From positions 13,333 through 77,332 of the forward strand of contig JBHLOY010000013.1 of NCBI GenBank assembly GCA_048939995.1: DNA of 64,000 bases, in the 5' to 3' direction. Positions 679 through 54,991 of this stretch are shown here, one piece after another. A program made the position numbers and the translations under genes. Every line of letters begins with the position of its first letter. The first letter of the stretch is position 1. This DNA comes from Promethearchaeota archaeon (GTDB taxonomy: Archaea > Asgardarchaeota > Lokiarchaeia > Sigyniarchaeales > SOKP01). The notes under the pieces are model-generated. The model was not told where the DNA came from, did no database searches, and saw only the letters and a list, made by a program, of their open reading frames with translations.

Positions 679-1311
679 TTAAGTATTATTTTCATACTTT
701 TTAATTATCATCCTTGTTAAACTCTCAAAAACATTCTTTAAGTTCTCCCCTGTAAGAACATTACATTCGAAATAAGCATCAAGTTGTTCAGATCTTAAAA
801 ATTCTAAAGCTTGTTCTTTAGATACTTGGCTTAGATTATTTGAATTATCATTATTACCCATCAATATTAAAGGAATATTGTTAGTATTATCCCTTATTAT
901 CTGAATCCATTTTGGTAAGATATATAATGTTTTAGAATTTGATATTTCAAACATTAAAAGAGCACCCAATGCACCCCTACAGTAAAGAGGGACCAAAACT
1001 CTCCAGCGTTCTTCAGTTGCTAGATCCCAGATTTGTAATTTAATGTTAAGGCTTTCTATTTTAATTTCTTTTATCTCGAAACTAATCCCGATTGATAGCT
1101 TTGTATTTGCCTTAAACCATGAATTTCCATAATTTTCTAAGTATGTTATCTTTCCCGTATCATTATGCCCTACTAACAAGACTTTAAATAAAAAATGAGG
1201 GTCAAAATGAGCTTTTTTTTTAACTTTCTTTTCCACAAAAGGTTCTTTTTTAATGTTAGATAATTCTTCCCTTAATTTTTCATTATCTATATTGCTCTTC
1301 TTTGATCCCAT
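679..1311 (-). CDS. Rab-like small GTPase with degenerate G motifs
   Basis: FKVLLVGHNDTGKIT, SIGISF, KLQIWDLATEE, YCRGALGALLMFE, LMGNNDN, ECNVLTGENL. Confidence 0.85.
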   Translation of the reverse strand: MGSKKSNIDNEKLREELSNIKKEPFVEKKVKKKAHFDPHFLFKVLLVGHNDTGKITYLENYGNSWFKANTKLSIGISFEIKEIKIESLNIKLQIWDLATEERWRVLVPLYCRGALGALLMFEISNSKTLYILPKWIQIIRDNTNNIPLILMGNNDNSNNLSQVSKEQALEFLRSEQLDAYFECNVLTGENLKNVFESLTRMIIKKYENNT

Positions 1312-7946: not shown

Positions 7947-8061
7947 TTTAATCTTTTTTTCTTAAATTTTTTCTTAATTGTATGATAATTACTCTTTAAG
8001 TTATTGAGGTAATTTTTAAATAGAATTTTATACTACATTTTGATTAATAAATACTACATAG

Positions 8062-8709
8062 GTGAATTTATTGTTTAAGAAATTTATGGACGCTTTAGGT
8101 TTAACAAGTAACAAGATTAGTGATTTAGTTAAGGAGAGTAATCACTATATCAATGCCGAAGAAAATGTGACCAAAGATATTAACAAAACTATGACTGCCT
8201 TAAAAAGTTATGCAGAGACAGAAACACCTTCATTGGGAGAAGCCATAAATTCATTGGCTCAAACTTTTGAAATCATTGAAATAGAACGCAAGGAGAAAGT
8301 ATCCAAGCTAAGAGAGCAATATATTGCTCCTTTGAATAATTTGATCGCACATTTAAAAAGGTTACAAACTGAGCAAGACGAGGCAACAAAAGCAGTTAAA
8401 GAAGTTGAAAAAGCTGAAAAAACTCTTAGTAAGGCTCAGAGTAAACCCAATGAAAAATTAAAACCGGGCGAAATAGAAAGTGCTGAGACTGCTTTAAAAG
8501 CCGCGAAACAAAAAGCAAAAAAAGAAGAAAACGATGCAAAGACTGCCGCAGAAGAATTTAACAAGGTAAAATTAGAAACAATCCAGAAAGTTCTCCGTAA
8601 TATGGTAGAGATTGAAAAATTATACCATGAAAAGATACTCACCGCTATCTCAAATGTCAAACAAAAAGCTGAAGCAATAAAGATCGAGGAAGAATCTAAG
8701 ATAGCATAA
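8062..8709 (+). CDS. BAR-domain-like coiled-coil protein (FAM92/CIBAR-like)
   Basis: All-helical 215 aa; YAETETPSL, KLREQYIAPL, IESAETAL, FNKVKLETIQKVL..VEIEKLYHEKIL fit a BAR three-helix pattern. Confidence 0.7.
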   Translation: MNLLFKKFMDALGLTSNKISDLVKESNHYINAEENVTKDINKTMTALKSYAETETPSLGEAINSLAQTFEIIEIERKEKVSKLREQYIAPLNNLIAHLKRLQTEQDEATKAVKEVEKAEKTLSKAQSKPNEKLKPGEIESAETALKAAKQKAKKEENDAKTAAEEFNKVKLETIQKVLRNMVEIEKLYHEKILTAISNVKQKAEAIKIEEESKIA

Positions 8710-8741
8710 TTTAGAAATTTTTTTCTCTTTTTTTTCTAATT

Positions 8742-14195: not shown

Positions 14196-14756
14196 TTATT
14201 TTAATTTTGTTGGCCTTCTTTTCCAGAGTTTAATCGATTCGAGAATAAATACTCCTGTTCCAAAAATTAAGAAAATTAAAAAAAGAAAACCTCCTGGATG
14301 CGTGATAAAATCATCACCATAGACGCTTGCTAAAAAAAGATATGCTATAAAACCAAGAATATAAAAAATTAAGTAAAGCGAAAATCGAGGGACCATAATA
14401 TATCCAACTCGGATGTAAAATCCCAACATTCCTTTTTTTGATTCCTCACAGGGATAATACTTTCCATTTATTTCGTTTTTTTTTATGATTCCAGCTCTAG
14501 ATAACTTTTTTATTTGATATGAAACGGTTCCGGGAGAAGAAAAGTTCAATGATTTCTGAATTTCTCTAACTCCCGCATGTTTATGAGTTAGTATATACCA
14601 ATAGATTTGAAGTGCTTTACCTCTTAATACTTTTCCTTTATTAAAATCGGGATTTATTTCAATATTTGATTTTAACTCATAGATTTCATTTCGGAACGCA
14701 GACTCAGACGATATTTCAAATTTTTCCTCCTTACTTTCAGCTTCTTCAGAAGTCAA
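14196..14756 (-). CDS. Membrane-tethered winged-helix regulator (wHTH + 2 TM)
   Basis: GVREIQKSLNFSSPGTVSYQIKKL...GKY wing, then two hydrophobic helices; TTG start overlaps the TGA of the upstream SBP gene. Confidence 0.82.
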   Translation of the reverse strand: MTSEEAESKEEKFEISSESAFRNEIYELKSNIEINPDFNKGKVLRGKALQIYWYILTHKHAGVREIQKSLNFSSPGTVSYQIKKLSRAGIIKKNEINGKYYPCEESKKGMLGFYIRVGYIMVPRFSLYLIFYILGFIAYLFLASVYGDDFITHPGGFLFLIFLIFGTGVFILESIKLWKRRPTKLK

Positions 14757-17124: not shown

Positions 17125-19839
17125 TTATTTTGACTTTGATGGCCTAGTTTTCCAAACTTTAATCGATTCAAAAATAAACACGGCAGTTCCAAAAATCAAG
17201 AAAACTAATAGAAGTATACTGCCTGGATTGGTAATGAAGTTATCGCCATATATACTAGCAAAAATTAGGTACCCTATAAAGCCTAACACATTGATAACTA
17301 AGTATAATGAAAATCGAGGTATCATTAGAAAACCAATATGAGTGTAAAACCCTAAAATTCCTTTTTTTAATTCTTTATTCACGTAATATTTTCCGTCTTT
17401 ATCGCTTTTTGATATAATTCCAGTTTTTAATAACTTATCTATTTGATAAGATACGGTTCCTGGCGATGAAAACTTTAATGATTTCTGGATTTCTCGTACT
17501 CCGGCACGACTATGAGTCAAAATATACCAATAAACTCGAAGCGTTTTACCTTGTAATACTTTTTCTGGGCTAACATTAAGAGGCTTAGTTTTAACTTTAG
17601 TTAATATCTTTATATGAACGAGTCTCTCTTTAACTTTGGACCTTGGTAGTGTCTTTCTCTTTCCCTTGGTTAGTTTTTTCCGTTGGACGTACCATTCAAT
17701 AGATAGAATACCAACAAAAATGAGGGAAACACTTATTAAAATGCCAAATTGTAAAATTAAATAATAACCTGGAATTAATGGACCTTCAGTATCGATAGAT
17801 TCAGGTTTTTCATAATAGTCAGTAATTGTATTGTTAATAAATATGTTCCCAATTACATTGTTATAACACGAAAGTTCAAGATATATCCCAATCTCGTTGT
17901 TACTTACTATATTTCCTAAAACTAAATTGGATTTACTCACATTTAAACCAATACCTATCCAAAAATTATTATCTACGGTATTCAAATATATAGTATTATT
18001 ATTGCTATCTTGTAAAGCTATACCAGCAAGAACATTATAGTTTGCAATGTTTCTAGTAATATTGTTATTTTTGCTGTTAATTAAGCCTATTCCAACAATA
18101 TCATTGTTATTTACGATGTTTCCCGATATTATATTATTATTGCTGTCTTGTAAGACTGCTCCAGCCAGACCATTACAGTTTGCATAATTCTCAGAAATCA
18201 GATTTCCACTACTATTTTCAACGAGTATTATACCAACTAGATTATTATCTACGATATTTTTTGTAATGTTATTATAATGACTATTTAATACAAATATCCC
18301 ATTACTGTTGTTGTTGATAATGTTTCCCATTATAATGTTATTAATATGATTATAAAAGCCTATTTGAATCCCATTAGTATTATTATTTACAGTGTTACCA
18401 GAAATAATGCAATTATCTCCGCGCAGGAGTATCCCATTCTCACTATTATTTACCATATTTCCCGAAACAATATTATTATCGCCTAGGATTCGAATACCTT
18501 CTCCATAAAAGTTATGAACACCATTTGAGGAAACTTTGTTTTTCAGGATGTTATTCTTATTCCCTTTAATTTCGATGCCATTATATTCGTTATATTTTAC
18601 CGTATTTTCTGTGATAATAGTTTCATTTCCATCAAATATACTTATTCCAACCCCATCATTATTAAAGGTATTTCCAGAGAGCATGATGTTATCGCAATAA
18701 AATAATTTTATCCCATTGTTAAAATTGTAATTTGCGGTGCTTCCTGAAATACTATTGTTATTACTCTCAATTAAGCTTATTCCGTTATAACCATTACTTG
18801 CGTTAATTCCTAAAATAGTGTTGTTATTAGAGAAATATAATGCAACTCCCGTATTGGCATAGGAAACATCCAAATTTGAGATATTTGAATTATTACAATT
18901 AACTAAAATAACTTGACCAGCATTAGTAAAATTGTTTGAACTTAGACTTTTTTCATTCTTATAATAGTATAAAGGTTTGCCATTAACTAAATTTGAATTG
19001 TCTATATCGTGGGAATCTAATTCGTCAATTGATCCTCTTACCTCTAACCCATTATTATTTAAGATATTTTTGGACACTGTATAATTTACACCTTCTCTGG
19101 CAATAATTCCGCCCCAGCGATTATTTATGACAAAATTTCCTGAAATTGTTGTACTTTCGCTCTGTTCTAATAAAATTCCATTAAGATTATTACTTAGAAA
19201 GTTTCCAGTAAGATTATTGTTCCCACCACCATTTAATGATATTCCATAACCGTTATCAGTTAATGAGTTCCCCTCAATATTGTTTCTATTACTATTAAAC
19301 ATGATATTTATCCCTATCTCGTTTTTATTTACGTCGTTTCCTAAGATACTGCTATCATTACAATTTTCCAAGAATATCCCATTATAATTAAGTGAAAGAT
19401 TGTTATTAATTAATTGAGCATTACTAACATTTGACAATACAATTGCCCCTCCCCAACCATATTCATAACGATCAACAGCTAATGAGTTATAAATGGTACA
19501 ATTTTCAATTTTAAAAAAAAATCTTGAATTCTCAATCAAGATACCGTAGACCATTCCGTCGACCTCAATTATAAGATCTTCTATAATATAAGGATCGGTA
19601 AAATTCCCATAACCTGTGACTATTTTCGCAATCTTCGTTTCAGACCAATTATTATTGATGTGAATAATTCTTGATACTTTTGAGATTTTCAAAGTTTTGC
19701 CATCTAAGTCAATATCATCAAGATTTTCTAAATTTTTCTTGTTATCTCCGTAATTATTTATAAGGTGGATTTTTGTTGAAAATACAAAAATAAATCCAAA
19801 TATGGCTATTAAATTTATTATTTTTATGATTCTTTTCAT
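17125..19839 (-). CDS. NosD-type beta-helix ectodomain - TM - wHTH - 2 TM fusion (candidate transmembrane one-component regulator)
   Basis: Signal peptide, many NNxxGIxL repeats, NLVNGKPLYY, IPGY-TM-basic segment, then ~145 aa about two-thirds identical to 14196-14756. Confidence 0.85.
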   Translation of the reverse strand: MKRIIKIINLIAIFGFIFVFSTKIHLINNYGDNKKNLENLDDIDLDGKTLKISKVSRIIHINNNWSETKIAKIVTGYGNFTDPYIIEDLIIEVDGMVYGILIENSRFFFKIENCTIYNSLAVDRYEYGWGGAIVLSNVSNAQLINNNLSLNYNGIFLENCNDSSILGNDVNKNEIGINIMFNSNRNNIEGNSLTDNGYGISLNGGGNNNLTGNFLSNNLNGILLEQSESTTISGNFVINNRWGGIIAREGVNYTVSKNILNNNGLEVRGSIDELDSHDIDNSNLVNGKPLYYYKNEKSLSSNNFTNAGQVILVNCNNSNISNLDVSYANTGVALYFSNNNTILGINASNGYNGISLIESNNNSISGSTANYNFNNGIKLFYCDNIMLSGNTFNNDGVGISIFDGNETIITENTVKYNEYNGIEIKGNKNNILKNKVSSNGVHNFYGEGIRILGDNNIVSGNMVNNSENGILLRGDNCIISGNTVNNNTNGIQIGFYNHINNIIMGNIINNNSNGIFVLNSHYNNITKNIVDNNLVGIILVENSSGNLISENYANCNGLAGAVLQDSNNNIISGNIVNNNDIVGIGLINSKNNNITRNIANYNVLAGIALQDSNNNTIYLNTVDNNFWIGIGLNVSKSNLVLGNIVSNNEIGIYLELSCYNNVIGNIFINNTITDYYEKPESIDTEGPLIPGYYLILQFGILISVSLIFVGILSIEWYVQRKKLTKGKRKTLPRSKVKERLVHIKILTKVKTKPLNVSPEKVLQGKTLRVYWYILTHSRAGVREIQKSLKFSSPGTVSYQIDKLLKTGIISKSDKDGKYYVNKELKKGILGFYTHIGFLMIPRFSLYLVINVLGFIGYLIFASIYGDNFITNPGSILLLVFLIFGTAVFIFESIKVWKTRPSKSK

Positions 19840-23592: not shown

Positions 23593-26500
23593 TTATCTAG
23601 AGAAATATTCCTTTAACTCATGCTTAACTGAACCTTTTCCTTTGAGATCATAGAGTAATTCATCAGTACTATGAATAATTACCTCACTTAATTCGTGAGT
23701 CTCACGTAAGATATCAAATTGTCCTTTATAATACAGATCGATAATCTCATTAAATGCCTCCTCATATACTCCTTTCAATCCTATTGATTGAATAAATGCC
23801 TTATAATGATTGATTCTAACATTTTTCATAGGACCTTGAAATGAAAAAGACTCATTATTTTCTAGCAATTTAATAACAACAATGATTAAGAGCGTGTTTG
23901 CATTCTGAAAATCTTTACTTGATTTGATAATATCTTCATTAGATGTATCCTCAGTGTAAATTATTTGAATCGATCTAATTCTGTCCCTAATTGATGGATC
24001 TATATTTAGGAACGAAACTTGATCATCAAAAAGAATTAATCCATGGATTTTATTTTGAATATCATCATAGATTTGAGGATTGGAATAATATTTAATACCA
24101 ATTTCATCAAAATACTTCGTCAATAAATCGTTAATGCAGGAATAAACAAGTTCTACTTCTCCCATAACTAGTGGTGTTCCTGTTATTTCTAATTTTCGGT
24201 CTTGTTCATGTTTAGATTCTTGATTGTCAACATACATTTTAAGATTTTCAGAGACTATCTTACTTTCATTATATAGTTCAAGTGATTTTGAATAATCTCC
24301 AGATATTGCAGCTTTTTTGGATTCAATCTCATATTGATCCTTCAAATAGTTAAGACCTTTAATTGCGATATCGATTTGTTTTTGACGGTAAAAATCTGCA
24401 TTTTGAGAGTTTCCAAGAATCTCTTCAATAATAATAATTTCACCTGCAAATCCTGCTGCTTTGACATAATCTTTCTCTTCTGTTAATTTGTTAACATAAG
24501 CAATTACTTTCTCTCTTCTGGCAAGTAGATCTGCTTCAGTCTTATCTTTGAGCGTTTCATAATCTAATAAACTTAATTCTTCATAAATTTTCAACTTTGC
24601 CTTAGTTACTGGCTGCTTTTCTGATATTTGAATACCTATTTCCTTCTTCTTACTCTTTGATTTTTTTAGCACTACAATTCCTACTACCCCACCTATAGCT
24701 GCTCCTATTACAACAAATATTATCCATAATGGAAATTCAGATGGTTGAGAAGTGGATGTTATAGAAAAGCTATCTGTTGCGGCAGGACTCTGATGACCTG
24801 CACCATCAATTTGATATAAAAAGTAATAATAAATTCCTGGTTGAAGAGATTCCATATACTCATAATAATTACCCGTTAAGTTTATTGCAAACACGAATCC
24901 AGGGGTAGCTAAAGGATTTGCTTCATTATCTATAATTAATCTATACTTAATTATCCCAGAAGGATCGGAACCATCTTGCCATTCAAATATTAAAGTACCA
25001 CTTACAGCTCCTTGGGGAGCCTGTATTAACGACGGTGCTGGAGGAGCAATTGTATCTTTATATAAAACTATTAGCACAGGGTCGCTCAAATGATTAAGAG
25101 TATCATTTGCATAGATATAAACATAAAATCTTCCTTCTGGTAAACTATTCCAAATTAAATTATTGAATGGTTGGTTAATATTATTTCCCAACAAGATGTT
25201 AGTTGTGTTTACTTGATACCAAATTAGATCTAGATTAGCATCTGTAGCTAAAACATTGATAATAGGTGCTGCTCTGCAGTAAGTGTTATTCAACGGGAAA
25301 TTTAATGCAATTGAAGGTGCTATTGTATCTTTTATTATCGTTATCTCATCAAATCCAATAACTCCTAAAGTATTATTTATATAAAAACTAATCGTAATAG
25401 TACCATCTGATTTAGCGTCCCATGCTAATTGATTTATAGTCCCAGTTAGCCCTGTAAATGTATAATTTACTATTCCATTATCTAAAGTATACCAACTTGT
25501 ATCTAGATTGCTTCCACTTATATTAACAGCATAATTCGGCGCTGTATTACCATACACACCGTCTGAAATAGGAGTATTAATCATTATCATGGGAAAGAAG
25601 ATATCTTTATAAACAATAACTTCTGCTGTTCCTAAATTGCCTACTGTATCATTAGCATAAAATTTGATCATTATTGTTCCATTACCAACTTGCTCCCAAA
25701 CACTCTGAGCGATTGCTCCTGTCCATGTGTAATTATTAGTAACAATAGTTCCATTGTCCAATTGATACCATTCATTATCTAAATTAGCGTCATTAATATT
25801 AATAGTAATGCTTGGAGGTGAAATCCCAAACAAGTCATAATTATTTGGTTCTGTAATAATTATAGTAGGAGTAATTGAATCTCTATTGATTACCACACTC
25901 GCAGCATCCCAGTTACCAGCAGAATCATTTACATAAAATAGTATCGTAATAGAACCTTGACCTGCAGTATTCCATGCCGTAGAATCGATCGTTCCGCTCA
26001 ATGCTCCTGTGAAGTTATTTAGACCTCCATCAAGTGTGTACCAAATCCTATCTCTATTCGATTCAGTGATAGAAAGAGTATAACTTGGAGGAAGGCTACT
26101 GAACCATGCTCCAGGTAATGGTGAATCGATACTATCTATTGAAGGATTAACGGTATCTCTATAAATTGCTACGCTCGCAGTATCCCAGTTACCCGCAGAA
26201 TCATTTACATAAAATATAATTGTAATGGAACCTTGGCCTGCATTATTCCATGCTAAAGAGTTGATTGTTCCGCTTAATGCTCCGGTATAGTTATTTAAGC
26301 CTCCATCAAGCGTATACCAAATCCTATCTCTATTCGATTCAGTGATAGAAAGACTATAACTTGGAGGGAGGCTACTGAACCATGCTCCAGATAATGGTGA
26401 ATTGATACTATCTATTGAAGGATTAATGGTATCTCTATAAATTGCTACGCTTGCAGTATCCCAGTTACCCGCAGAATCATTTACATAAAATATAATTGTA

Positions 26501-29500
26501 ATGGAACCTTGGCCTGCATTATTCCATGCTAAAGAGTTGATCGTTCCGCTTAATGCTCCGGTATAGTTATTTACCCCTCCATCAAGCGTATACCAAATCC
26601 TATCTCTATTCGATTCAGTGATAGAAAGACTATAGCTTGGAGGGAGACTACTGAACCATGCTCCAGATAATGGTGAATCGATACTATCTATTGAAGGATT
26701 GATAGTATCTTTATAAATTTGTACGGTATCAGAGGTTTCAATGCCAAAATTGTTGTTTAAATAAAATGTAAGAGTAATAGAACCTTGACCAGCATTATCC
26801 CATGCTGTGGAATCAATTACACCAAACCAAGAATTAGATTGATTAGCATTACTAGTAATAGTATAATTGTTAAGTCCATTATCAAGAGTATACCATATAG
26901 AATCACGATCGTTCCCGCTCACATAAACATCATAATCTGGAATAGATCCAAACCATTCGGCAGTACTAGGTGAATTAATAGAAATTGATAAATCTGAAGT
27001 TTTTGTTACTCCTACACTTGCAGAATCCCAATTACCCAAGGAATCATTTACAAAAAATGTAATCGTGACAGCACCTAAACCAGCATTGCCCCATGCGATA
27101 TAATCAATTGTTCCACTCGTTGCTCCCGTGTAGTTGTTTAAACCATCATTGAGGGTATACCAAATCTCATCTAAATTCGCTTCGGTAATGGAAAGACTAT
27201 AACTTGGTGGGGTTGAATGGTTTGAGCCAGATGAAGGTGAATCGATACTAACTGAAGGTTTGATAATATCTTTTCTAACTATTACTTCTTCATAATTAAT
27301 ATTACCTAATGTATCATTTGCGTAGAATCGAATTATTACTGTTCCATTTGGTCTTCCGTTCCACGTAGTCTGATCGAGACTCCCTATTGCAGCGACAGGA
27401 GTGGAATTAGTGGTTCCACCATCTAAGCTATACCAAATAGAATCTAAATTGGGATCTGTAACTGTAAGATTATAATTAGGCGCCATCGATCCAAATAACT
27501 CATTCGGGTTAGGAGAGTTAATGTTTATATCTGGTGCTGTGGTATCTTCACCTACTTGATATTCAGCTCCAATTGAGTAAAAACTGCTTGGGTCATATTG
27601 ATTGTTGTATTCAGTAGCAATCCAATCTACTGAACGAGCAATATTAGATAATCGAACTTCATCCATGATACCTTCTAAGTTATCAGGACTTCTAGCAATA
27701 GTTAGAGAATCTATTATTGTTTCAATCATTTCTGAAAAAGTGGCCGTATTTGGATCTTGAGTCCCATTAATAAAAATTTTCATTGTATTGCCAACTCTAA
27801 CACATGTGATACTAACCCATTTATTAAGCGAAATCAATGTCTGACTCTTTAAACTAGTTGAACCAATCCCATTTAATCTAAAATAAATAGCTCTATCCCT
27901 ATAAATAAAAGAGGAATAAGCATCAGTATAAATACCTTTGGTTACTGTATCAGGATCATTACTTACATCATATGCCATTACCCAATATTGGATAGTTAAA
28001 TTCTCGGTCAAATCTAATGAAACATCATTTCCACAATCAACATAATCATCGATTCCGTCAAGTTCTAGACTCCCATCAAGTCTTCCAGGAATTTGATCTC
28101 CAGGATCCATCGTTCCATACGAAGTACCATCATTATTGTTGGTTGTGGAATCCTTTATTGGATTTGTAGGATCTTCAGATAAATGCCATACTCCAACATA
28201 ATTAGTATCCCATACTCCATCGGGGTTTTGAATTGAATACATGGTTGAATTTCCATAATACATATAGATTTTAGTGTCTACCATGGGTGAAAGAGAAGGA
28301 ATGCGTACCCAAGATACTAAAAATGCATGTGTTGTATTATGATCTCGATTAAATAATTCAATTTCATGATCAAGCCAATTCTTACCATCATAAAAAGCTA
28401 TATCGTTACCATTAGATTGAACATCAGTATGTAAGTCCATATCATAAAGAGATATTAAAATAGGAAAATTAGTGAGATTACTCGATCCAGAGATTTTAGT
28501 ATGATCAATTATTATTTCTTTATAATATTTAAAGCTATTCAAAGAAGGTCGAAGTAATTCTTCAGTGCTTAGTGTAAGTGTTGGTTCTGGCTCTACAAAT
28601 ATCCTTAAGTAGATATCATCCACAAATAGCGTGTTAAATTCATTAGGTGATGCCCAATAAATACCTGTGGAGAATTTATCGGTTGGTTCAGAACCTAAAT
28701 TAATCGAAGTGTTATGAATCTCTAAGTTACCATCTAACCATAGCTTAGCCAATCCATAACTACTGGAAACGTTAACTTGTACATCCAATGTATGCCAGGT
28801 ACCCTTAGATATAGTGTTGGTCTCTAAATAACCATAGGCTTCTCCTGCAACAGCATTCCACATATATAAAGTCATATCATCATTTATAGTAACACTAATC
28901 AAATTTTGCCATACTGTGGCTGTGTCAACAAACTGTATAACTGTTACCCTGTCTGTAGTACTAAAACTAGGATCAAGATAAATATGTACGTGGGCATAAA
29001 GGCTTGCTTCATCTGGAAAATCCTCAAAAACCATAGCCTGAGGAGTAGTAACATTGTCCATATCACACTTTGCAGCATAATTGCCTGTGTGAACCTGATC
29101 AGTTGATGCTATGATTGAATCCCCTACAGATCCAGTACTATTTCCATCCCATCCGTTCAAATTACCGCTTTCGAAACCATCATAAAAAAAGAATATATTA
29201 CTTGGGTCAACCAACGGGGAATTAGCTAATTTATTGCCGTAGTATAGATAATAATTATTATCAAATGACAAGGCTTGTATTGGTTTCTGGGTTTTAAACC
29301 ATATTTTAGTTGATTCATTGTTCCATGAGGAGTCAAGATCCAACATTCTATCCAGAACATTCCACATAGTGCCATTCCAATATACTAATCGGATATCATC
29401 ACCATCTGCTTGACTTTTACCCTTAATGACCAGATCAGCGTGATCGAAAGTCAAAGAAACTGTATAGCCAGAAGGTATATCAGAACTACCAGTTGTCACA

Positions 29501-30663
29501 GTAACTTTTCTACGATATTTCCAGTTTTGATTAAACCAAGAACCGTATGTTTCTTCAGATTCAAGTGTTAAACTTGGTGATGTTGCGACTAATAACCTAA
29601 TCTTTAGATCATCATAATATGAGGGTATAGTAGTCCAAGTTAAGAAACCAATTTGTCCAGCATTCAAATGAGAAGTATTTGTATTATCAATTCTTAATTG
29701 ATCATCTAAATATATCTTAAATCGTGATCCAAGAGCCTCTACTTTTAAGTTATACCATTGGTCACTCACTAAATTCGATTCATCTACACCATCATAAACA
29801 GGTGTCTCCCAAATACCACCAGTACAATCACCATACGCTACTTCTCTGTCCCAATATCCAATTCCCGCACAATAGAAATTATTTGAGTCAGAGTAACGAA
29901 ATAATATTCCTACTCCAAAACTAATGCCAACATTTTTTATACGGACCTCTATTGATGCATTTTCGACAGTATAGGAATTTAATAAACTTCTACGATCTGT
30001 AAGACCTGAATTTTCGCGATATTCATTATTTATAACAGACCAAGTTCCGCTTATAACCGTCCATCCATTAGCAGGTCCATCAGCCTGTGTAAAATCATCG
30101 TAATAATCATATACTTTACTTTTATTTGTTGGGGGACTACCAGCAACCTCATTACCATAATAGAGATAATAATTAGTGTCAGTAGCACCCACGCTTATGG
30201 AACTTTGAGTTTTAAACCAAATTTGAGTACTAATAGTATTAAAATTTGTTTCATTTACACGATCGAGTTCTAACCATGTCTTATTAGTTGAGTTATACCA
30301 TAAGATTCGAAGGTCATTTCCATCAGCTCGAAGTTTTCCTACAGAAATTAATTCAGCTGAATTAACTGATAAATTAACCGAATATCCTTTAGGAAGAATT
30401 TTCGTATTTACATTTGTAATATTTATTTGAACACGATACATATATGATGAATCCCACCAATTTTTTAAATTTGGTGGTTGACTAGTCTGCAGCTTATCGG
30501 GATAAAAATTATCGCGAGTATTATTGAAACCGTTAATCTTTATAAAATTATCAGCAATATCAATTGTTGATATTATATTACACGCCAAGATAATAGTTAA
30601 AACCAAAATTTTAGATTTAACCTTTTTCAACTTAATTCCTCCATTCTTATACCTATATTTCAT
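23593..30663 (-). CDS. Giant single-pass surface protein: DUF2341/ConA-LamG modules, Ig-like stalk, TM, ~350-aa cytoplasmic domain
   Basis: DGNDLRI, YYLYYGN, YVGVWHL, DEVRLS..WIATEYNNQ; WYTLD/FYxND repeats; GAAIGGVVG TM followed by KKSKSKKK. Confidence 0.85.
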   Translation of the reverse strand: MKYRYKNGGIKLKKVKSKILVLTIILACNIISTIDIADNFIKINGFNNTRDNFYPDKLQTSQPPNLKNWWDSSYMYRVQINITNVNTKILPKGYSVNLSVNSAELISVGKLRADGNDLRILWYNSTNKTWLELDRVNETNFNTISTQIWFKTQSSISVGATDTNYYLYYGNEVAGSPPTNKSKVYDYYDDFTQADGPANGWTVISGTWSVINNEYRENSGLTDRRSLLNSYTVENASIEVRIKNVGISFGVGILFRYSDSNNFYCAGIGYWDREVAYGDCTGGIWETPVYDGVDESNLVSDQWYNLKVEALGSRFKIYLDDQLRIDNTNTSHLNAGQIGFLTWTTIPSYYDDLKIRLLVATSPSLTLESEETYGSWFNQNWKYRRKVTVTTGSSDIPSGYTVSLTFDHADLVIKGKSQADGDDIRLVYWNGTMWNVLDRMLDLDSSWNNESTKIWFKTQKPIQALSFDNNYYLYYGNKLANSPLVDPSNIFFFYDGFESGNLNGWDGNSTGSVGDSIIASTDQVHTGNYAAKCDMDNVTTPQAMVFEDFPDEASLYAHVHIYLDPSFSTTDRVTVIQFVDTATVWQNLISVTINDDMTLYMWNAVAGEAYGYLETNTISKGTWHTLDVQVNVSSSYGLAKLWLDGNLEIHNTSINLGSEPTDKFSTGIYWASPNEFNTLFVDDIYLRIFVEPEPTLTLSTEELLRPSLNSFKYYKEIIIDHTKISGSSNLTNFPILISLYDMDLHTDVQSNGNDIAFYDGKNWLDHEIELFNRDHNTTHAFLVSWVRIPSLSPMVDTKIYMYYGNSTMYSIQNPDGVWDTNYVGVWHLSEDPTNPIKDSTTNNNDGTSYGTMDPGDQIPGRLDGSLELDGIDDYVDCGNDVSLDLTENLTIQYWVMAYDVSNDPDTVTKGIYTDAYSSFIYRDRAIYFRLNGIGSTSLKSQTLISLNKWVSITCVRVGNTMKIFINGTQDPNTATFSEMIETIIDSLTIARSPDNLEGIMDEVRLSNIARSVDWIATEYNNQYDPSSFYSIGAEYQVGEDTTAPDININSPNPNELFGSMAPNYNLTVTDPNLDSIWYSLDGGTTNSTPVAAIGSLDQTTWNGRPNGTVIIRFYANDTLGNINYEEVIVRKDIIKPSVSIDSPSSGSNHSTPPSYSLSITEANLDEIWYTLNDGLNNYTGATSGTIDYIAWGNAGLGAVTITFFVNDSLGNWDSASVGVTKTSDLSISINSPSTAEWFGSIPDYDVYVSGNDRDSIWYTLDNGLNNYTITSNANQSNSWFGVIDSTAWDNAGQGSITLTFYLNNNFGIETSDTVQIYKDTINPSIDSIDSPLSGAWFSSLPPSYSLSITESNRDRIWYTLDGGVNNYTGALSGTINSLAWNNAGQGSITIIFYVNDSAGNWDTASVAIYRDTINPSIDSINSPLSGAWFSSLPPSYSLSITESNRDRIWYTLDGGLNNYTGALSGTINSLAWNNAGQGSITIIFYVNDSAGNWDTASVAIYRDTVNPSIDSIDSPLPGAWFSSLPPSYTLSITESNRDRIWYTLDGGLNNFTGALSGTIDSTAWNTAGQGSITILFYVNDSAGNWDAASVVINRDSITPTIIITEPNNYDLFGISPPSITININDANLDNEWYQLDNGTIVTNNYTWTGAIAQSVWEQVGNGTIMIKFYANDTVGNLGTAEVIVYKDIFFPMIMINTPISDGVYGNTAPNYAVNISGSNLDTSWYTLDNGIVNYTFTGLTGTINQLAWDAKSDGTITISFYINNTLGVIGFDEITIIKDTIAPSIALNFPLNNTYCRAAPIINVLATDANLDLIWYQVNTTNILLGNNINQPFNNLIWNSLPEGRFYVYIYANDTLNHLSDPVLIVLYKDTIAPPAPSLIQAPQGAVSGTLIFEWQDGSDPSGIIKYRLIIDNEANPLATPGFVFAINLTGNYYEYMESLQPGIYYYFLYQIDGAGHQSPAATDSFSITSTSQPSEFPLWIIFVVIGAAIGGVVGIVVLKKSKSKKKEIGIQISEKQPVTKAKLKIYEELSLLDYETLKDKTEADLLARREKVIAYVNKLTEEKDYVKAAGFAGEIIIIEEILGNSQNADFYRQKQIDIAIKGLNYLKDQYEIESKKAAISGDYSKSLELYNESKIVSENLKMYVDNQESKHEQDRKLEITGTPLVMGEVELVYSCINDLLTKYFDEIGIKYYSNPQIYDDIQNKIHGLILFDDQVSFLNIDPSIRDRIRSIQIIYTEDTSNEDIIKSSKDFQNANTLLIIVVIKLLENNESFSFQGPMKNVRINHYKAFIQSIGLKGVYEEAFNEIIDLYYKGQFDILRETHELSEVIIHSTDELLYDLKGKGSVKHELKEYFSR
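25882..26709 (-). repeat. Three tandem 276-bp intragenic repeats (92-aa Ig-like unit)
   Basis: GAAGGATT marker at 26141, 26417, 26693 (period 276). Confidence 0.92.
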
Positions 30664-31103: not shown

Positions 31104-34100
31104 TTATCGATGAAGATATTCTTTTAACTCATACATAACTAAACCCTTTTCTTTGAGATCATAGAGTAATTCATCAGTACTATGAATAATTACTTCACTT
31201 AATTCATGAGTCTCACGTAAGATATCAAATTGTCCTTTAAAATAGAGATCGATAATTTCATTAAATGCCTCCTCATACACTCCCTTCAATCCAATTGATT
31301 CAATGAATGCCTTATAATGATTTATTCTGACATTTTTCATAGGACCTTGAAATGAAAAAGACTCATTATTTTCTAGCCATTTAATAACAACAAGGATTAA
31401 GAGCGTATATTCATTCTGAAATTCTTTACTTAATTTAATAATAGCTTCATTAGATGTATCCTCAGTGTAAATTATTTGAATCGATCTAATTCTGTCTCTT
31501 ATTGATGGATCTATATTTAGGAATGAAATTCGATCATCAAAAAGTATTAATCCATGTATTTTGCTTTGAACATCGTCATAGATTTGAGGATTGGAATAAT
31601 ATTTAATACCAACTTCATCAAAATACTTTGTCAGTAAATCATTTATGCAAGAATAAACAATTTCTACTTCTCCCACAACTATTGGCGTTTCCGCTACTTC
31701 TAATTTTCGGTCTTGTTCAAGTTTAGCTTGATTGTCCATATACCTTTTAAGATTTTCTGATACTATCTTACTTTCATTATATAGTTTAAGTGATTTTGAA
31801 TAATCTCCAGATATTGCAGCTTTTTTGGATTCAATCTCATATTGATCCTTCAAATAGTTAAGTCCTTTAATTGCGATATCGATTTGCTTCTGACGGTAAA
31901 AATCTGCATTTTGAGAGTTTCCAAGAATCTCTTCAATAATAATAGTTTCACCTGCAAATTCTGCTGCTTTGACATAATCGTTTTCTTCTGTTAGTTTATT
32001 AACATGAGTAATTACCTTCTCTCTCCTAATAAGTAAATCTGCTTCAGTCTTATCTTTGAGTGTTTCATAATCTAATGATTTAAATTCTTCATATACTTTC
32101 AATTTAGGCTTAGTTATTGGCTGTTTTTCCGTTATTTGAATAGGTACTGCTTTCTTCTTCTTCTTACTCTTTGACTTTTTTAGAACTATAGCTCCCACGA
32201 CTCCACCGATAGCAACTCCTATTACAATGAATATAATCCAGAATGGAAATTCTGATGGTTGAGAACTGGACATTATCGAAAAACTGTCTGTTTCAGCAGG
32301 ACTCACATTACCTGCTCCATCAATCTGATATAAAAAGAAATAATAAGTTCCTGGTTGAAGAGATCCAGTATATTCATAATAATTCCCAGTTATGTTTATT
32401 TCAAATACAAATCCAGGTGTGATCAAAGGATTTGCTTCATTATCTATAATAAGTCTATATCTTAGTATCCCAGAAGGATCAGAACCTTCATACCATTCGA
32501 ATATTAATGTACCACTTACTTCTCCTTGAGGAAAATTTATTAAAATTGGTACTGAGGGAGCAATTGTGTCCTTGTATAAAACTAACAAGATATAGTTACT
32601 CAAATGATTAACAGTATCATTTGCATAGATGTAAACATAAAATTGTCCTTCTGATAAACTATTCCAAATTGAAATATCTAATTGCTGATTGATATTATTT
32701 CCCAGTAATATACTAATTGAGTTAACTTGATACCAAATTGAATCTAGATTTGGATCTATAGCTAATACATTGATCATTGGTGATATTCGACAATATGAAT
32801 TATTCAATGGGAGATTTAATATAACCGATGGTGCTAAAGTGTCTTTTATAATAGTTATCTCATCAAATCCTATAACTCCTAACGTGTTATTTATATAGAA
32901 TCTAATTATTACATCACCATCACTTTGGGCGCTCCATGCTAATTGGCTTATAGTTCCTGTTAATCCTGTAAACGTATAATTAACTAACCCATCATCTAGC
33001 GTATACCACCTTGAATCTAAATTACTTCCACTTACACTAACAATAAAACTAGGTGCTGTACTGTTAAAAACCTCGTTAAAATTGGGATTGTTAATTGTTA
33101 TTATAGGAGCGAAGACATCCTTATAAACTATCACTTCTGCAGATCCTAAATTACCCAGCGTGTCATTTGCATAAAACCTAATGATAACTGTACCATTACC
33201 AACTTGATCCCATACGCTTTGAGCGATAAAACCTGTCCATGTGTAATTATTAGTAATAATAGTTCCGTTGTCCAATTGATACCATTCATTATCTAAATTA
33301 GGGTCATTAATATTTATGGTAATGTCTGGAGGTTCATTTCCAAACAATTCATAATTAGTTGGTTCTATAATAGTAACGGTAGGAGAAATTGTATCTCTAT
33401 TAATTACTACACTCGCAGCGTCCCAGTTACCTGCAGAATCATTTACATAAAATATAATCGTAATAGAACCTTGACCTGCATTATTCCATGCCGTAGAGTC
33501 GATCGTTCCGCTCAATGCTCCTGTGTAGTTATTTAAGCCTCCATCGAGCGTATACCAAATGTTATCTCTATTCGATTCAGTGATAGAAAGAGTATAACTT
33601 GGAGAGAGGTTACTGAACCATGCTCCAGACAATGGTGAATCGATACTATCTATTGAAGGATTAATTGAGTCTCTATAAATTACTACGCTTGCAGTATCCC
33701 AGTTACCCGCAGAATCATTTACATAAAATATAATTGTAATAGAACCTTGACCTGCATTATTCCATGCTATAGAGTCGATCGTTCCGCTCAATGCTCCTGT
33801 GTAGTTATTTAAGCCTCCATCAAGCGTATACCAAATCCTATCTCTATTCGATTCAGTGATAGAAAGAGTATAACTTGGAGGGAGGCTACTGAACCATGCT
33901 CCAGACAATGGTGAATCGATACTATCTATTGAAGGATTAATTGAGTCTCTATAAATTACTACGCTTGCAGTATCCCAGTTACCCGCAGAATCATTTACAT
34001 AAAATATAATTGTAATAGAACCTTGACCTGCATTATTCCATGCTATAGAGTCGATCGTTCCGCTCAATGCTCCTGTGTAGTTATTTAAGCCTCCATCAAG

Positions 34101-37100
34101 CGTATACCAAATCCTATCTCTATTCGATTCAGTGATAGAAAGAGTATAACTTGGAGGAAGGGTACTAAACCATGCTCCAGATAATGGTGAATCGATACTA
34201 TCTATTGAAGGATTGATAGTATCTTTGTAAATTTGTACGGAATCAGAGGTTTCAATACCAAACGTATTGTTTAAATAAAATGTAATCGTATTAGAACCTT
34301 GACCAGCATTATCCCATGCTGTAGAATCAAATATTCCAAACCAAGTATCTGTTAGATTAGCACTACTCGTAATAGTATAATTGTTAAGTCCATTATCAAA
34401 AGTATACCATATGGAATCACGATCATTTCCGCTCACATAAACATCATAATCAGGATTAGATCTAAACCATTCGGCAGCATTAGGTAAATTAATAGAAATT
34501 GATAAATCTGAAGTTTTTGTTACTCCCACACTCGCTGAATCCCAATTTCCCACGGAATCGTTTACATAGAATGTAATTGTGACTGCACCTAAACCTGCAT
34601 TACCCCAAGCTATAGAATTAATTGTCCCACTCAATGCCCCTGTGTAGTTGTTTAAACCATCATTAAGGGTATACCAAATCTTATCTCTATTCGCTTCGGT
34701 AATGGAAAGACTATAACTTGGTGGGGTTGAATGGTTTGAACCAGGCGAGGGCGAGTTGATACTGATTGAAGGTTTAATAATATCTTTCCTAACGATTATT
34801 TCTTTATAACTAATATTACCTAATGTATCATTTGCATAAAATCGAATTGTTACTGTTCCATTACCTAATGCACTCCACATGTTTTGATCAATGGTTCCAC
34901 TAGCGCTAACAGGCGTAGAATTAGTGGCCCCTCCATCTAAGGTATACCAAATAGAATCTAAATTGGGATCCGTAACTGTAAGATCATAATTAGGCGCGCT
35001 CGATCCAAATATATCATTCAAGTTTGGAGAATTAATAGTTATTTCTGGTCCTGAAGTATCTTCACTCTGATATTCAGCTCCTACAGAGTAAAAGCTATCT
35101 GGATCATATTGATTGTTGTATTCGGTAGCAATCCAATCTGCAGAACGACCAACCTGAGAAATCCGAACCTCATCAATTTGTCCTAACCACGGATATGACC
35201 ATGCTACTCCTTCAGGTTGATCTCCATGCCCGATTCTAAAAGAAAACGGCAGAGCACTTACAATATTATTTGTTTTAGATAAGGTGGCAGGATCTGGTAT
35301 TCCATCTACATATATTCTCATTTCAGTTCCATTATATGTAGCAACGACATGATGCCATATATCTGATGAGATGGTTTGTGCAGTTTCTAAATCACTCTCA
35401 TTTCCAGGAAGTTGAAAGCTCATCAACTGACTATTAAGATCCATTACAAGGCGATATCCATTATAAAAACCTTTATGGTTGAGAGGACCCATCCAAGGAT
35501 GAGTTAAAGGATATTTCATCCATAACTGTATAGTTATTTGATTAGTTGTAAGATCTAAGCTTGTATCATTTCCGCAATCGATAAAGTGATCACTAAAATT
35601 TTGGCCATAACCAATAGATCCCGTAACTTTGCTTGGAATATAAGTTATATTTCCTAATCCACCTTGACCATGATTCCCATAGTGACTACTATCTGCATAT
35701 TCATTCACTGTTCCTATTCCTATCTCTTTAAGATGCCAAACTCCAACATAATTTGGATTCCATACTCCCATGGGGTTCTCTTGAGACCCCATCGTTGAAT
35801 TTCCATAATACATAGTGATGTTAGTATCAATTGAAGATGATAGAGATGGAATTCGAACCCAAATAATTAATTGAGCATGAGTAGCACTATAACTTTGATT
35901 GAATAGTTCAATTTCATGATCTAACCACGTATCTCCGCTATAAAAGGCAATATCATCACCATCTGTTTGAGTATGAATATGTAAATCTGAATCAAACAAA
36001 GAAATTAGTACGGGAAAATTAATTAGATCGTTTAATCCAGTTACCATTGTTGAGTTAATTGTTATGACTTTATAATAAGCGAAATAATTCACATTCCGAG
36101 CTAAATTTGTTTCTTCAATTCCCACAGAATAAAAAGATTTAGGATCATTTTGATTATTATATTCGGTGGCAATCCAATCTGCAGAATGTGTTTTACTAGA
36201 AATACGTATTTCATCGTATTTGCCTTCAAAATGACCAAGTTGACTGATATTAACAGAAGCACCCCATAACCAATCCTCCAGTTGAGCTAATTGGGTCCAA
36301 TAGGTATCAACATTAATAATATCAAATGTACTAGGAGATCCATCAAGATACATTGTTACATTTCTGTTAGAATAATTAAATGTAACAATCAGATAATGCC
36401 AGATTCCATTAGTAAAGGGGTTTGTTTTTAAGTTATAATTAAGACTATTTCCTCCCCAGGGATAGAAGAAATTATCTCCATTTTGATTAACAGACCATTC
36501 AAAACCGTCTCTATGATTAGGAGCTATTCTATTAAAACGATTACTAGTAGTCATGATTCTTTGATATTCACCAGTTTTAGACGAATTTACCCAATTAATC
36601 CATAGGGATAAAGTTCCCTCATCGTTTATTGAATTTAAAGATGAACTTCTTGAAATATTGATAAAATCATCAATCCCATCAAAATCATAACCCTTTCCAA
36701 TTTGAGAATTAACTAAATCTATATTATCCATTGAACCATTAGTTATTCCATTATTTCCATGGTATGTACTATCATATACATCATTCATTATTCCAGTTGG
36801 AGCATCATTTAAATGATAAACTCCAACATAATTTGGATTCCATACTCCCATAGGGTTTTCTTGAGGACCCATAGTTGAATTTCCATAATACATATAGATT
36901 TTTGTGTCAGTGGATGTCGAGAGCGAAGGAATGCGAACCCAAGCAATTAATTGGGCATGGGTAATGTTAAAATCTTGATTAAATAGTTCTATTTCGTGAT
37001 CTAACCATTCAATACCATTGGTAAAAACAATATCATCTCCATCTGGTTGAGCATGGTCATGTAAGTCTGAGTCATACATAGAAATTAGTACAGAAAAATT

Positions 37101-38554: not shown

Positions 38555-39127
38555 CTATCGTAAAAAAAATTTTGATTTATTAGGAATAGGAAGTGAATTA
38601 GGAATTTCCTCAAGATTAATATTCTTTAACATTAACCTAGTTAAAGTATTAAACACTTTTTCTATATTTACCCCTGTCTTGCTAGAGCACTCTATAAAAT
38701 CATCAAGCCCCATTAATTTTGCGCTGTTCTCGCCTTTCTCGAATGATACTTTTCTTTGATTCTCTAGATCAGTCTTTCCACCGACTAGAATGATTGGAAA
38801 TATCTGTTTTGATTCACTAATGATCGATAACCAATCACTCAAATGATAGAGTGAAGATTGATTCGTGATATCATACATCATTACTCCGCCCATTGCTCCA
38901 AGCACATATTGAGGAAAGAGGAACCTAAAACTCTTTTCCCCACCAAAATCCCAGATCATTAGCTTTACGTTAAATCCATCTATCGAAAGGCTTGTAGCAT
39001 CAAAATCGACTCCAATTGTTTTATAAGTATTTGGGATGAATTTTGTTGTTAAAAACCGCTGAGTTAAGGTTGTTTTGCCACACCCAGCATCACCAAAAAT
39101 AACAACTTTGAAAATTGCATCAAACAT
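38555..39127 (-). CDS. Rab-like small GTPase
   Basis: GDAGCGKTT, YKTIGVDF, WDFGGE, GGKTD, ECSSK. Confidence 0.92.
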   Translation of the reverse strand: MFDAIFKVVIFGDAGCGKTTLTQRFLTTKFIPNTYKTIGVDFDATSLSIDGFNVKLMIWDFGGEKSFRFLFPQYVLGAMGGVMMYDITNQSSLYHLSDWLSIISESKQIFPIILVGGKTDLENQRKVSFEKGENSAKLMGLDDFIECSSKTGVNIEKVFNTLTRLMLKNINLEEIPNSLPIPNKSKFFLR

Positions 39128-52761: not shown

Positions 52762-53484
52762 GTGGCAATAAATTATGACTATCTTTTTAAGACAATTGCT
52801 ATAGGAGATGGTGGCGTAGGTAAAACTGCATTAACTGTAAGATTTTCAACGGGATTATTTGCTGAAGATTATAAAATGACAATTGGGGTAGACTTTCATG
52901 TTAAAACACTTCCTATAGAAACGACTGAAGGTACATTTAAATGCAAATTACAATTATGGGATACTGGAGGGCAAGAAAGGTTCAATGCAATCAGACCTGT
53001 TTATTATCGAGGTTCTTCAGGGGGGGTGTTAGTTTTTGATCTTACTAATTATTTAAGTTTTAAGCATCTTCCTCGATGGATAGAAGAGGTTCGGACTAAT
53101 ACAACCAGTAATATCCCTTTATTACTTGTAGGTAATAAAAGTGATCTATCAGAGCTAAGAACTGTCTCGATTAGAGAAATCAATGAGTTTACTAAAGATT
53201 CCAACCTTTATTATATGGAAACCTCAGCTAAAACCGGTGAGGGTGTTGGAGATTGCTTCTATATCATGGCATGTCTTATGATTGGGGCTGGAGTGCCTGA
53301 AAAATTAATAGCCAGTGAAACCGTTTTTAGTCCAGGGAGAATCACATTAAAAGAGCATCCAGTATCTAGCCCAACACATAAACCTCCATCTGATGATAAG
53401 CTTCTTTTTCCTTCTATTTTTAAACCTCCAGATGATTTAGGTTTTGATACTAAAGCAAGTAAAAATAAAAAAAGTAGGAAGTAA
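52762..53484 (+). CDS. Rab-like small GTPase with Pro-rich tail
   Basis: YDYLFK, GDGGVGKT, YKMTIGVDF, WDTGGQERF, YYRG, GNKSD, ETSAK. Confidence 0.95.
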   Translation: MAINYDYLFKTIAIGDGGVGKTALTVRFSTGLFAEDYKMTIGVDFHVKTLPIETTEGTFKCKLQLWDTGGQERFNAIRPVYYRGSSGGVLVFDLTNYLSFKHLPRWIEEVRTNTTSNIPLLLVGNKSDLSELRTVSIREINEFTKDSNLYYMETSAKTGEGVGDCFYIMACLMIGAGVPEKLIASETVFSPGRITLKEHPVSSPTHKPPSDDKLLFPSIFKPPDDLGFDTKASKNKKSRK

Positions 53485-54439: not shown

Positions 54440-54991
54440 TTGTTAAATAAAATGAAAAAAGATAATGAAAAGAACATATTTGACGATGTTTTAAAAAAAC
54501 TTTTGGCAGCTATCCCGGAAATAAAAGCCGCAGCAATAGTTTCTGCTGAAGGACTTCCCGTTGCTTCAGCGCTGCCCCGTAATTTAGATGAGGTAAGAGT
54601 AGCCGCTATGACTGGTGCTTTACTCTCCTTATCTGAAAGGGCTATTATCGAGATGAATAAAGGCGATTTTGATCAATTCTATATTAAAGGAAGCAATGGT
54701 TATCTCTTAATTCTACAAATTAATCCTGATTTAGCGTTAATAGTATCAGCAGATAAAGATGTTCGTCTTGGTCTAGCATTATTAGACTTAAGACGTACAT
54801 TTGGAGGGGATGATTTTCCATATCCGTATATATTCAAACCACCAGGACCAGGAGATTTAGGAGCTGTATCTCAAGCCCAAATAAAACCCAAAGTTAAGGA
54901 ATCAGGATATAAAACCTACTGTCAATATTGTGGTAAAGAAATCCTAAAAGAGGAGCAATTTCATCATAACTGCAGAAAAAAACCTAAATAG
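54440..54991 (+). CDS. Roadblock/LC7 protein with Pro-rich linker and zinc-ribbon tail
   Basis: AAAIVSAEGLPVASALP, RVAAMTGALLSLSERA, IKGSNGY, VRLGL; CQYCG..HHNC. Confidence 0.92.
   Translation: MLNKMKKDNEKNIFDDVLKKLLAAIPEIKAAAIVSAEGLPVASALPRNLDEVRVAAMTGALLSLSERAIIEMNKGDFDQFYIKGSNGYLLILQINPDLALIVSADKDVRLGLALLDLRRTFGGDDFPYPYIFKPPGPGDLGAVSQAQIKPKVKESGYKTYCQYCGKEILKEEQFHHNCRKKPK

Follow-up and report, generated by a model that had tools for sequence, protein, structure and literature searches.

A FAM92/CIBAR-related classical BAR protein encoded in a Lokiarchaeia genome

The window, a stretch of 64,000 nucleotides from a Promethearchaeota archaeon of the class Lokiarchaeia, carries at 8071..8709 (+) a gene for a FAM92/CIBAR-like, stand-alone classical BAR protein of 212 amino acids (24.0 kDa), present in one copy in its genome, where our search found no other. 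The BAR domain is a banana-shaped dimer by which eukaryotes sense and bend membranes, and FAM92/CIBAR is a family of the cilium base. Taken as a whole, the best explanation in our judgement, and a reasonably probable one, is a FAM92-related classical BAR dimer that would work as a tip-docked curvature sensor or scaffold in an accessory role. What is new is one more lokiarchaeial BAR protein and the placement of its family on the FAM92 side; lokiarchaeial BAR proteins have been known since 2015.

The gene and its kinship with FAM92/CIBAR

The initial annotation described an ORF of 215 amino acids at 8062-8709 (+). The ORF of 215 codons counted from GTG is indeed intact, but the GTG was not upheld as the start. 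It lies inside an AGGTGA ribosome-binding site (8060..8065 (+)), which ends five bases ahead of a TTG at 8071, and 25 related loci start at the corresponding MFKK position (20 with ATG, four with TTG, and one with GTG), most of them with a GGTG-like site at the same spacing. For these reasons the true start is most likely TTG 8071, giving a protein of 212 residues that begins MFKKF and is numbered from this codon throughout. The gene is flanked by an Rce1-like protease gene and a convergent beta-lactamase-family gene, and oligo-T tracts between its stop codon and the latter (8718..8735 (+)) read as a candidate archaeal terminator. With a GC3 of 0.29, the gene sits at the top end of the values found across the window. 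Third codon positions hold 63 of the 90 differences from the closest related locus, indicating purifying selection on the BAR gene.

Profile comparisons make FAM92/CIBAR very probably the closest eukaryotic BAR family. The Pfam FAM92 model (PF06730) matches the protein at 29.7 bits against a gathering cut-off of 23.6, over profile columns 29-219 of 225, and an NCBIfam scan of the protein gave no match. In a sequence search of the PDB the sole significant matches were CIBAR1 entries (9UHD, E 4.2e-9, query residues 15-201; 8CEG, E 9.3e-8; next match 0.03), and the identity to CIBAR1/FAM92A is about 20% over 200 residues. The four sequence blocks that had been quoted as matching FAM92A in order are aligned in the same way with the solved CIBAR1. 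A broad profile of 77 archaeal domains scored CIBAR1 at 84 and 79 bits, and amphiphysin, the next BAR family, at 25. In the reverse direction, eukaryotic FAM92 profiles gave 90-92 bits for this protein and 31 or less for other solved BARs; this reciprocal score is inflated because the eukaryotic alignments were picked with the archaeal profile, a selection bias of which the 77-domain result and the Pfam match are free. The profile-profile alignment of the archaeal family with FAM92 reached a probability of 99.4% over 201 columns, and the two families have an identical majority residue in 25 columns. The profile check proposed in the initial annotation thus came out in favor of its reading of a BAR protein resembling FAM92/CIBAR.

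A search of 1.84 billion proteins returned 116 matches, with the archaeal family first and eukaryotic proteins after it. Pfam FAM92 was matched by 33 of the 34 eukaryote-type matches that were aligned and scanned, and the named eukaryotic matches include molluscs, the chytrid Gonapodya, the rhizarian Mataza, and the metamonad Blattamonas. A search with a protist FAM92 profile returned only its own members.

Chance matches are common for lysine/glutamate-rich helical proteins, and we considered whether a generic coiled coil, a PspA/ESCRT-III protein, or eukaryotic contamination could account for the result. On the eukaryotic FAM92 profiles, 500 plain and 500 heptad-preserving shuffles scored at most 5.2 bits and the reversed sequence scored below zero. 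There are 207 close homologues, the named ones mostly from Promethearchaeota/Lokiarchaeia (a few MAG records carry labels of other Asgard groups). The gene is intact on contigs from independent metagenome studies, and it lies in a window rich in genes for Rab-like GTPases and roadblock-like proteins, in which no introns were found. Shuffle controls, homologues, independent contigs, and gene context together refute such an artefact, whose probability we put at next to nothing. PspA/Vipp1/ESCRT-III families are absent from the Pfam and fold match tables, an absence from a list that does not exclude them, and the BAR assignment is far stronger. The search results that had been named as speaking against the initial annotation, a generic coiled coil or PspA/ESCRT-III only, did not occur; FAM92 profiles and BAR folds were matched instead.

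The family might also be a slow-evolving relic near the root of all BARs, with FAM92 the nearest only through its own slow evolution. The 77 members are spread over the Pfam models FAM92 (26), BAR_3 (22), and BAR (18), with rare matches to arfaptin, IMD, and Vps5 (one of 77). Single divergent members score equally well or better on BAR or BAR_3, so the assignment to FAM92 rests on profiles. Structural Z-scores fail to separate the classical BAR families, and the tree described below was built without outgroup BAR sequences, both in keeping with such a relic. The gap of about 60 bits in both directions and the 25 columns with a common majority residue argue against it, and we regard this origin as unlikely.

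Fold, predicted dimer, and lipid-facing residues

In the AlphaFold2 monomer model (pLDDT 93), helices span residues 2-48, 53-124, and 134-201 and are followed by a short C-terminal helix, in agreement with the purely helical protein expected earlier. The fold is almost certainly that of a BAR domain. The best Foldseek match is FAM92A (TM 0.87, rmsd 2.0). VIA-align places arfaptin at the top (Z 17.0, rmsd 2.2, 194 residues aligned), with SNX5, FAM92A1, Bin1, and ACAP1 tied at Z 15.1-15.6 (FAM92A1: Z 15.3, rmsd 2.9, 188 aligned). Because other families tie with or out-rank FAM92A in this comparison, the fold is that of a classical BAR but does not single out a family. I-BARs superimpose on the monomer with TM 0.5 and rmsd 6-8, and F-BARs with TM 0.4-0.6; these values against 0.87 for FAM92A, and the presence of only three long helices, argue against an I-BAR or F-BAR identity. 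The observations that relate to a crescent shape, the low rmsd to FAM92A and a kept kink proline, concern the monomer only.

The protein is highly likely to be a homodimer, judged from modeling. The homodimer model scored 0.80 against 0.00 for the best control, with a pLDDT of 90 and at least 98% of contacts agreeing between runs; in a benchmark 20 of 30 solved pairs came up to this mark, as did one of 23 single chains. In the model the chains run antiparallel through helices 1 and 3, with H186 on the two-fold axis. Mouse FAM92A has 20 distinct hydrophobic interface positions, and offset mapping puts 19 of them, and K109/K116 as well, on contacts of the model (PMC12269497). Mouse L99, Y106, Y127, E131, K245, H264, and L268 are kept as L19, Y26, Y47, E51, K167, H186, and L190, and interface residues that differ include I102 (E22), M261 (K183), and Y275 (K197). 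A dimer, in the form of a crescent six-helix bundle, is what the initial annotation had expected, but FAM92A dimers have been solved (8CEG/9UHD) and may be remembered by the model, so the agreement shows likeness, not binding.

Several conserved positions follow the helices of FAM92A. The Y47-P53 motif (8209..8229 (+)) forms the turn between helices 1 and 2, and its Y47, A48, and E51 (mouse E131) are common to both families. P87 (8329..8331 (+)) aligns with the helix-2 kink proline of FAM92A, mouse P167 (PMC12269497), and the share of proline in this column is 75% for the archaeal rows and 76% for the eukaryotic ones. Helix 3 (residues 134-201, 8470..8673 (+)) contains, in models and alignment, F163, K167 (mouse K245), and H186 (mouse H264).

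The lipid-facing residues are only partly shared. FAM92A binds lipids via five basic regions, and charge reversal of the central one cuts liposome binding by about 90% (PMC12269497). The equivalent of its lipid-binding region 1 is, by alignment, residues 28-36 of helix 1 (8152..8178 (+)). At the positions of mouse R108, K109, R112, R114, and K116 the archaeal protein has N28, A29, N32, T34, and D36, so the central basic patch is absent. Lysine or arginine occupies the central-patch columns in 78-88% of eukaryotic rows versus 1-52% of archaeal rows, and the median net charge of the region-1 segment is -1 in archaeal versus +2 in eukaryotic rows. The neutral or acidic character of this region, as read from the alignment, is counter-evidence to a curvature role. 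The lysine-rich distal tip of the arm (residues 114-132, 8410..8466 (+)) is better conserved: K114, K121, and K125 correspond to FAM92A K194, R201, and R205, with Q123 at the R203 position. Tip columns carry lysine or arginine in 60-90% of archaeal rows, and the tip lysines are kept in both families.

An N-terminal amphipathic helix had been suggested. Residues 1-11 (8071..8103 (+)) are the amphipathic start of helix 1, modeled with low confidence, and may serve as a wedge or in dimer packing. The amphipathicity was confirmed, with a hydrophobic moment of 0.57 (18th of 202 windows in the same protein) and hydrophobic residues at the F2, F5, and L9 columns in 86-89% of the archaeal family; a separate H0 was not. 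If these turns detached and inserted into the archaeal membrane, they could substitute for the missing basic patch in an N-BAR-like manner. In line with this, the best N-terminal moment has a median of 0.63 in the archaeal family versus 0.41 in eukaryotic FAM92, G/N/S/P/D residues are frequent at positions 10-14 (42-63% in four of the five columns), and pLDDT is lowest here (62-66). However, one continuous helix runs through the N-terminus in the AlphaFold models of two family members, residues 5, 8, 11, and 12 contact the partner chain in the dimer model, and the hydrophobic stripe follows the phase of helix 1. In the alignment the segment also falls on the beginning of helix 1 of FAM92A, a protein without an H0 (PMC11266426). 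We therefore treat the detached wedge as a somewhat unlikely alternative to docking mainly by the arm tips.

Distribution, descent, and known relatives

In a profile scan of 400 Asgard genomes, full-length members occurred only in Lokiarchaeia, the class of the window. The gene is present in 46 of 134 other genomes of the host's own family (one of them a spurious weak match), which leaves about two thirds without it, and in 11 of 41 genomes of its genus, where several genomes of 99-100% completeness have none. It occurs in most genomes of three sister families and in both genomes of one family in another order. With three profiles, no full-length member was found in the 234 genomes of other Asgard classes. 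Weak matches outside Lokiarchaeia were inspected as sequences and rejected as partial, biased coiled coils or, in one case, as a translin. The best of them is a 468-aa coiled-coil protein in a complete genome (G117, L100:3880-5286; 27 bits, bias 16, partial). A positive-control search for Vps5 recovered no clear Thorarchaeia Vps5-BAR, although one is reported (PMC10307638), so far-diverged members could escape the scan. We propose that the protein is accessory and often lost or duplicated.

A 99/99 branch separates the archaeal from the eukaryotic rows in the maximum-likelihood tree (68 rows; near-duplicates, fragments, and redundant rows, 43 in all, were omitted, and a quick tree contains all 111), and the archaeal rows do not branch inside eukaryotic FAM92 diversity. 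Such a split speaks against recent transfer from any of the sampled eukaryotes, but it does not place the root. The phylogeny that had been suggested thus gave the split between the two sides and not a root position. The earlier placement near the root of one eukaryotic BAR family is not sustained, the tree being unrooted and the family found only in Lokiarchaeia. By sequence, the archaeal family is sister-like to FAM92, not a FAM92 member. It is deeply diverse (mean column identity 27%) and spans two orders; this diversity, the absence of nesting, and the GC3 of the gene make a recent transfer unlikely.

Ancient transfer of the gene between the Lokiarchaeia ancestor and a stem or early eukaryote would take the place of descent from a common Asgard ancestor with loss in the other classes. 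The confinement of full-length members to one class, the poor quality of the matches beyond it, and the likeness to one specific eukaryotic BAR paralogue are what such a transfer would leave. On the other hand, the archaeal set stands outside the eukaryotic sequences with the diversity just described, loss is frequent within the class anyway, and the missed Vps5-BAR means that very diverged members could have been overlooked elsewhere. We judge ancient transfer a possible but minority explanation. Descent to eukaryotes is itself unproven, as is a general role in protrusions, since the family is found only in Lokiarchaeia, and patchily.

The tree and the searches also returned unusual forms. 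Short, tail-less FAM92-like proteins from Mataza, Blattamonas, and Eukaryota sp. TZLM1-RC (P0201, P0231, P0235) fall between the archaeal family and the other FAM92 rows, on long branches that make their placement unsure. L. ossiferum, which has three family genes, and its relatives encode single chains with two BAR domains in tandem (L066:4208-5563, L068:3645-5288, L069:4682-6058; P0126, P0128, P0148, P0160), and several C-terminal halves of such proteins cluster in the tree. A genome from another order of the class (G128) has three adjacent, very diverged BAR genes (L062:2941-5411) and a fourth copy at L063. In a HEAT-repeat protein (P0162, L098:5001-6404), the BAR domain of the archaeal family is C-terminal. 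A search for longer or fused forms returned none, a weak negative, as it missed known tandem members too.

The 2015 Lokiarchaeum paper reportedly already listed its BAR/IMD proteins with the FAM92 signature of InterPro. Many close relatives are called "BAR domain-containing protein" at NCBI, and the automatic labels of NCBI and the ESM Atlas give relatives as BAR or FAM92. That BAR proteins are known in Lokiarchaeia, as had been stated, is correct: the literature has mentioned a putative BAR protein in Lokiarchaeum since 2015-2016 (PMC4917890), and Bar1 and Bar2 of L. ossiferum were found in a cross-linked Lokiactin co-IP, not significantly, in which an Arf GTPase was also present (PMC13716822). 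Bar2 is UYP47554.1 (bioRxiv 10.1101/2025.11.30.690169 table), identical to the family match P0126. Bar1 (24.73 kDa) is most likely the 217-aa single-domain member at L067 (computed 24.75 kDa), judging from mass and position. Both are 26-31% identical to the protein described here. The co-IP rows of the preprint give 0.026, 0.075, and 1.66 for Bar2 and 0.093, 0.18, and 0.94 for Bar1, taken as p, adjusted p, and log2 fold change, and both proteins have intensities in all 16 proteome columns shown there (bioRxiv 10.1101/2025.11.30.690169), indicating that the family is expressed in this cultured relative. Our literature search found no paper stating a FAM92 relationship of lokiarchaeial BARs or testing their function, none among the papers and supplements searched that pairs Asgard/Lokiarchaeota with FAM92, and no lipid-binding or tubulation report for any member of the archaeal family.

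Proposed role and comparison with known BAR proteins

We propose that the protein is a cytoplasmic classical BAR domain; its nearest eukaryotic kin, by profiles, is FAM92/CIBAR. In the predicted dimer, helices 1 and 3 of two antiparallel chains pack together to form a crescent of six helices. Residue mapping suggests that the concave side would dock on anionic archaeal lipids mainly via the lysine-rich arm tips, possibly assisted by the hydrophobic N-terminal turns, and not via the central arginine/lysine patch used by eukaryotic FAM92. From classical BAR geometry, the dimer may be a weak sensor of positive or saddle curvature, or a weak scaffold for it, at sites such as necks, constrictions, and branch points of the actin-rich cortex; it would not line the protrusion tube in the manner of an I-BAR. 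The inner wall of such a tube has I-BAR geometry, which a classical BAR does not fit, so a neck or branch point would be the likely site if the protein acts on protrusions. We consider curvature sensing or shaping probable, and action at protrusion necks together with Lokiactin only a tentative possibility. An actin-family gene lies about 4 kb from the diverged member P0205 (L095:5335-6452), in one case only.

The dimer could instead mainly bind protein, such as a small GTPase in the manner of arfaptin, a peptide as in FAM92-Chibby, or actin regulators, with membrane shaping minor or absent. The missing central patch, a net charge of +1 for the whole 212-aa protein, the leading place of arfaptin in VIA-align, and the homologues recovered with an Arf GTPase in the Lokiactin co-IP are compatible with this. 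A small GTPase gene also lies within 1 kb of the BAR gene in seven of about 41 loci versus a 5.4% background in this genome, though these loci (L040, L049, L051, L054, L056, L070, L071) are not independent and their arrangement varies. Against it, the tip lysines are conserved with lipid-binding residues of FAM92, the adjacency is not conserved, and the nearest GTPase gene in the window is 6.8 kb from the BAR gene. Across about 40 loci of the archaeal family no conserved neighbors were found, and no partner is indicated. Protein-binding and membrane roles are not exclusive, and a predominantly protein-binding scaffold seems to us rather unlikely beside the tip-docked curvature sensor.

The window contains further genes of note. 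Three Rab-like small GTPases and one roadblock-like protein were recognized by sequence motifs at 679-1311 (-), 38555-39127 (-), 52762-53484 (+), and 54440-54991 (+). Two tandem giant proteins of 2356 and 2434 aa (23593-30663 and 31104-38408 (-)) have hydrophobic N-termini and laminin-G-like and DUF2341 domains, with a polysaccharide-lyase-like domain in one, and are likely surface adhesins. A 904-aa repeat-rich protein (17125-19839 (-)) has as its C-terminal part a further copy of a 186-aa protein (14196-14756 (-)), in which an HTH-like region is accompanied by two hydrophobic helices.

The relevance to Asgard protrusions in general that had been suggested does not follow, with about two thirds of the genomes in the host's own family lacking the gene. 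The recovery of family members in the Lokiactin co-IP, though not significant, lends the suggestion indirect support. Crawling protrusions have been described in a second Asgard lineage as well, M. peptidophilum (PMC13716822); since it protrudes too and many Lokiarchaeia lack the gene, the protein is unlikely to be a general protrusion shaper. A wider conjecture, improbable in our estimate, makes FAM92/CIBAR the BAR family passed on to eukaryotes by direct inheritance from Asgard archaea. In archaea it would have acted at the necks of actin-filled protrusions, with its tips and N-terminus in contact with archaeal lipids; the central patch would have come later, for phosphoinositides and cardiolipin, and the role at the ciliary base would continue an older one at the protrusion base. 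The restriction to Lokiarchaeia and the frequent loss call for caution against naming the family a proven ancestor. Asgard protrusions need membrane-shaping proteins. A small single-domain member for which the dimer model is confident lends itself well to assays of archaeal BAR function, and a eukaryote-specific central lipid patch beside shared tips suggests a hypothesis on BAR adaptation from archaeal to eukaryotic lipids.

Among known systems, CIBAR1/FAM92A and CIBAR2/FAM92B (PF06730; 9UHD, 8CEG; PMC12269497, PMC11266426) are, like the archaeal protein, classical BARs of three helices and equal length. The archaeal protein has in common with FAM92A the helix-2 kink proline, the equivalents of the E131/K245 pair and of H264, the basic arm tips, and, by prediction, a matching antiparallel interface. 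It differs in its missing central basic patch, in having no long acidic/disordered C-terminal tail, in a more hydrophobic N-terminus, and in its setting, an archaeal host without cilium or mitochondrion. N-BAR proteins (amphiphysin, endophilin), arfaptin, SNX-BAR, and APPL/ACAP share the fold (Z 14.8-17.0), but their sequence likeness to it is much weaker (25 bits or less), and it has no PX, PH, or SH3 domain and no predicted separate H0. The Thorarchaeia Vps5-BAR (PMC10307638) is likewise an Asgard protein of BAR type, reported as Vps5-like and often fused to Vps28, whereas the protein here stands alone and its family hardly ever matches Pfam Vps5. Within Lokiarchaeia, Bar2 is a tandem two-domain protein, and the single-domain protein described here belongs to another subfamily than Bar1 and Bar2.
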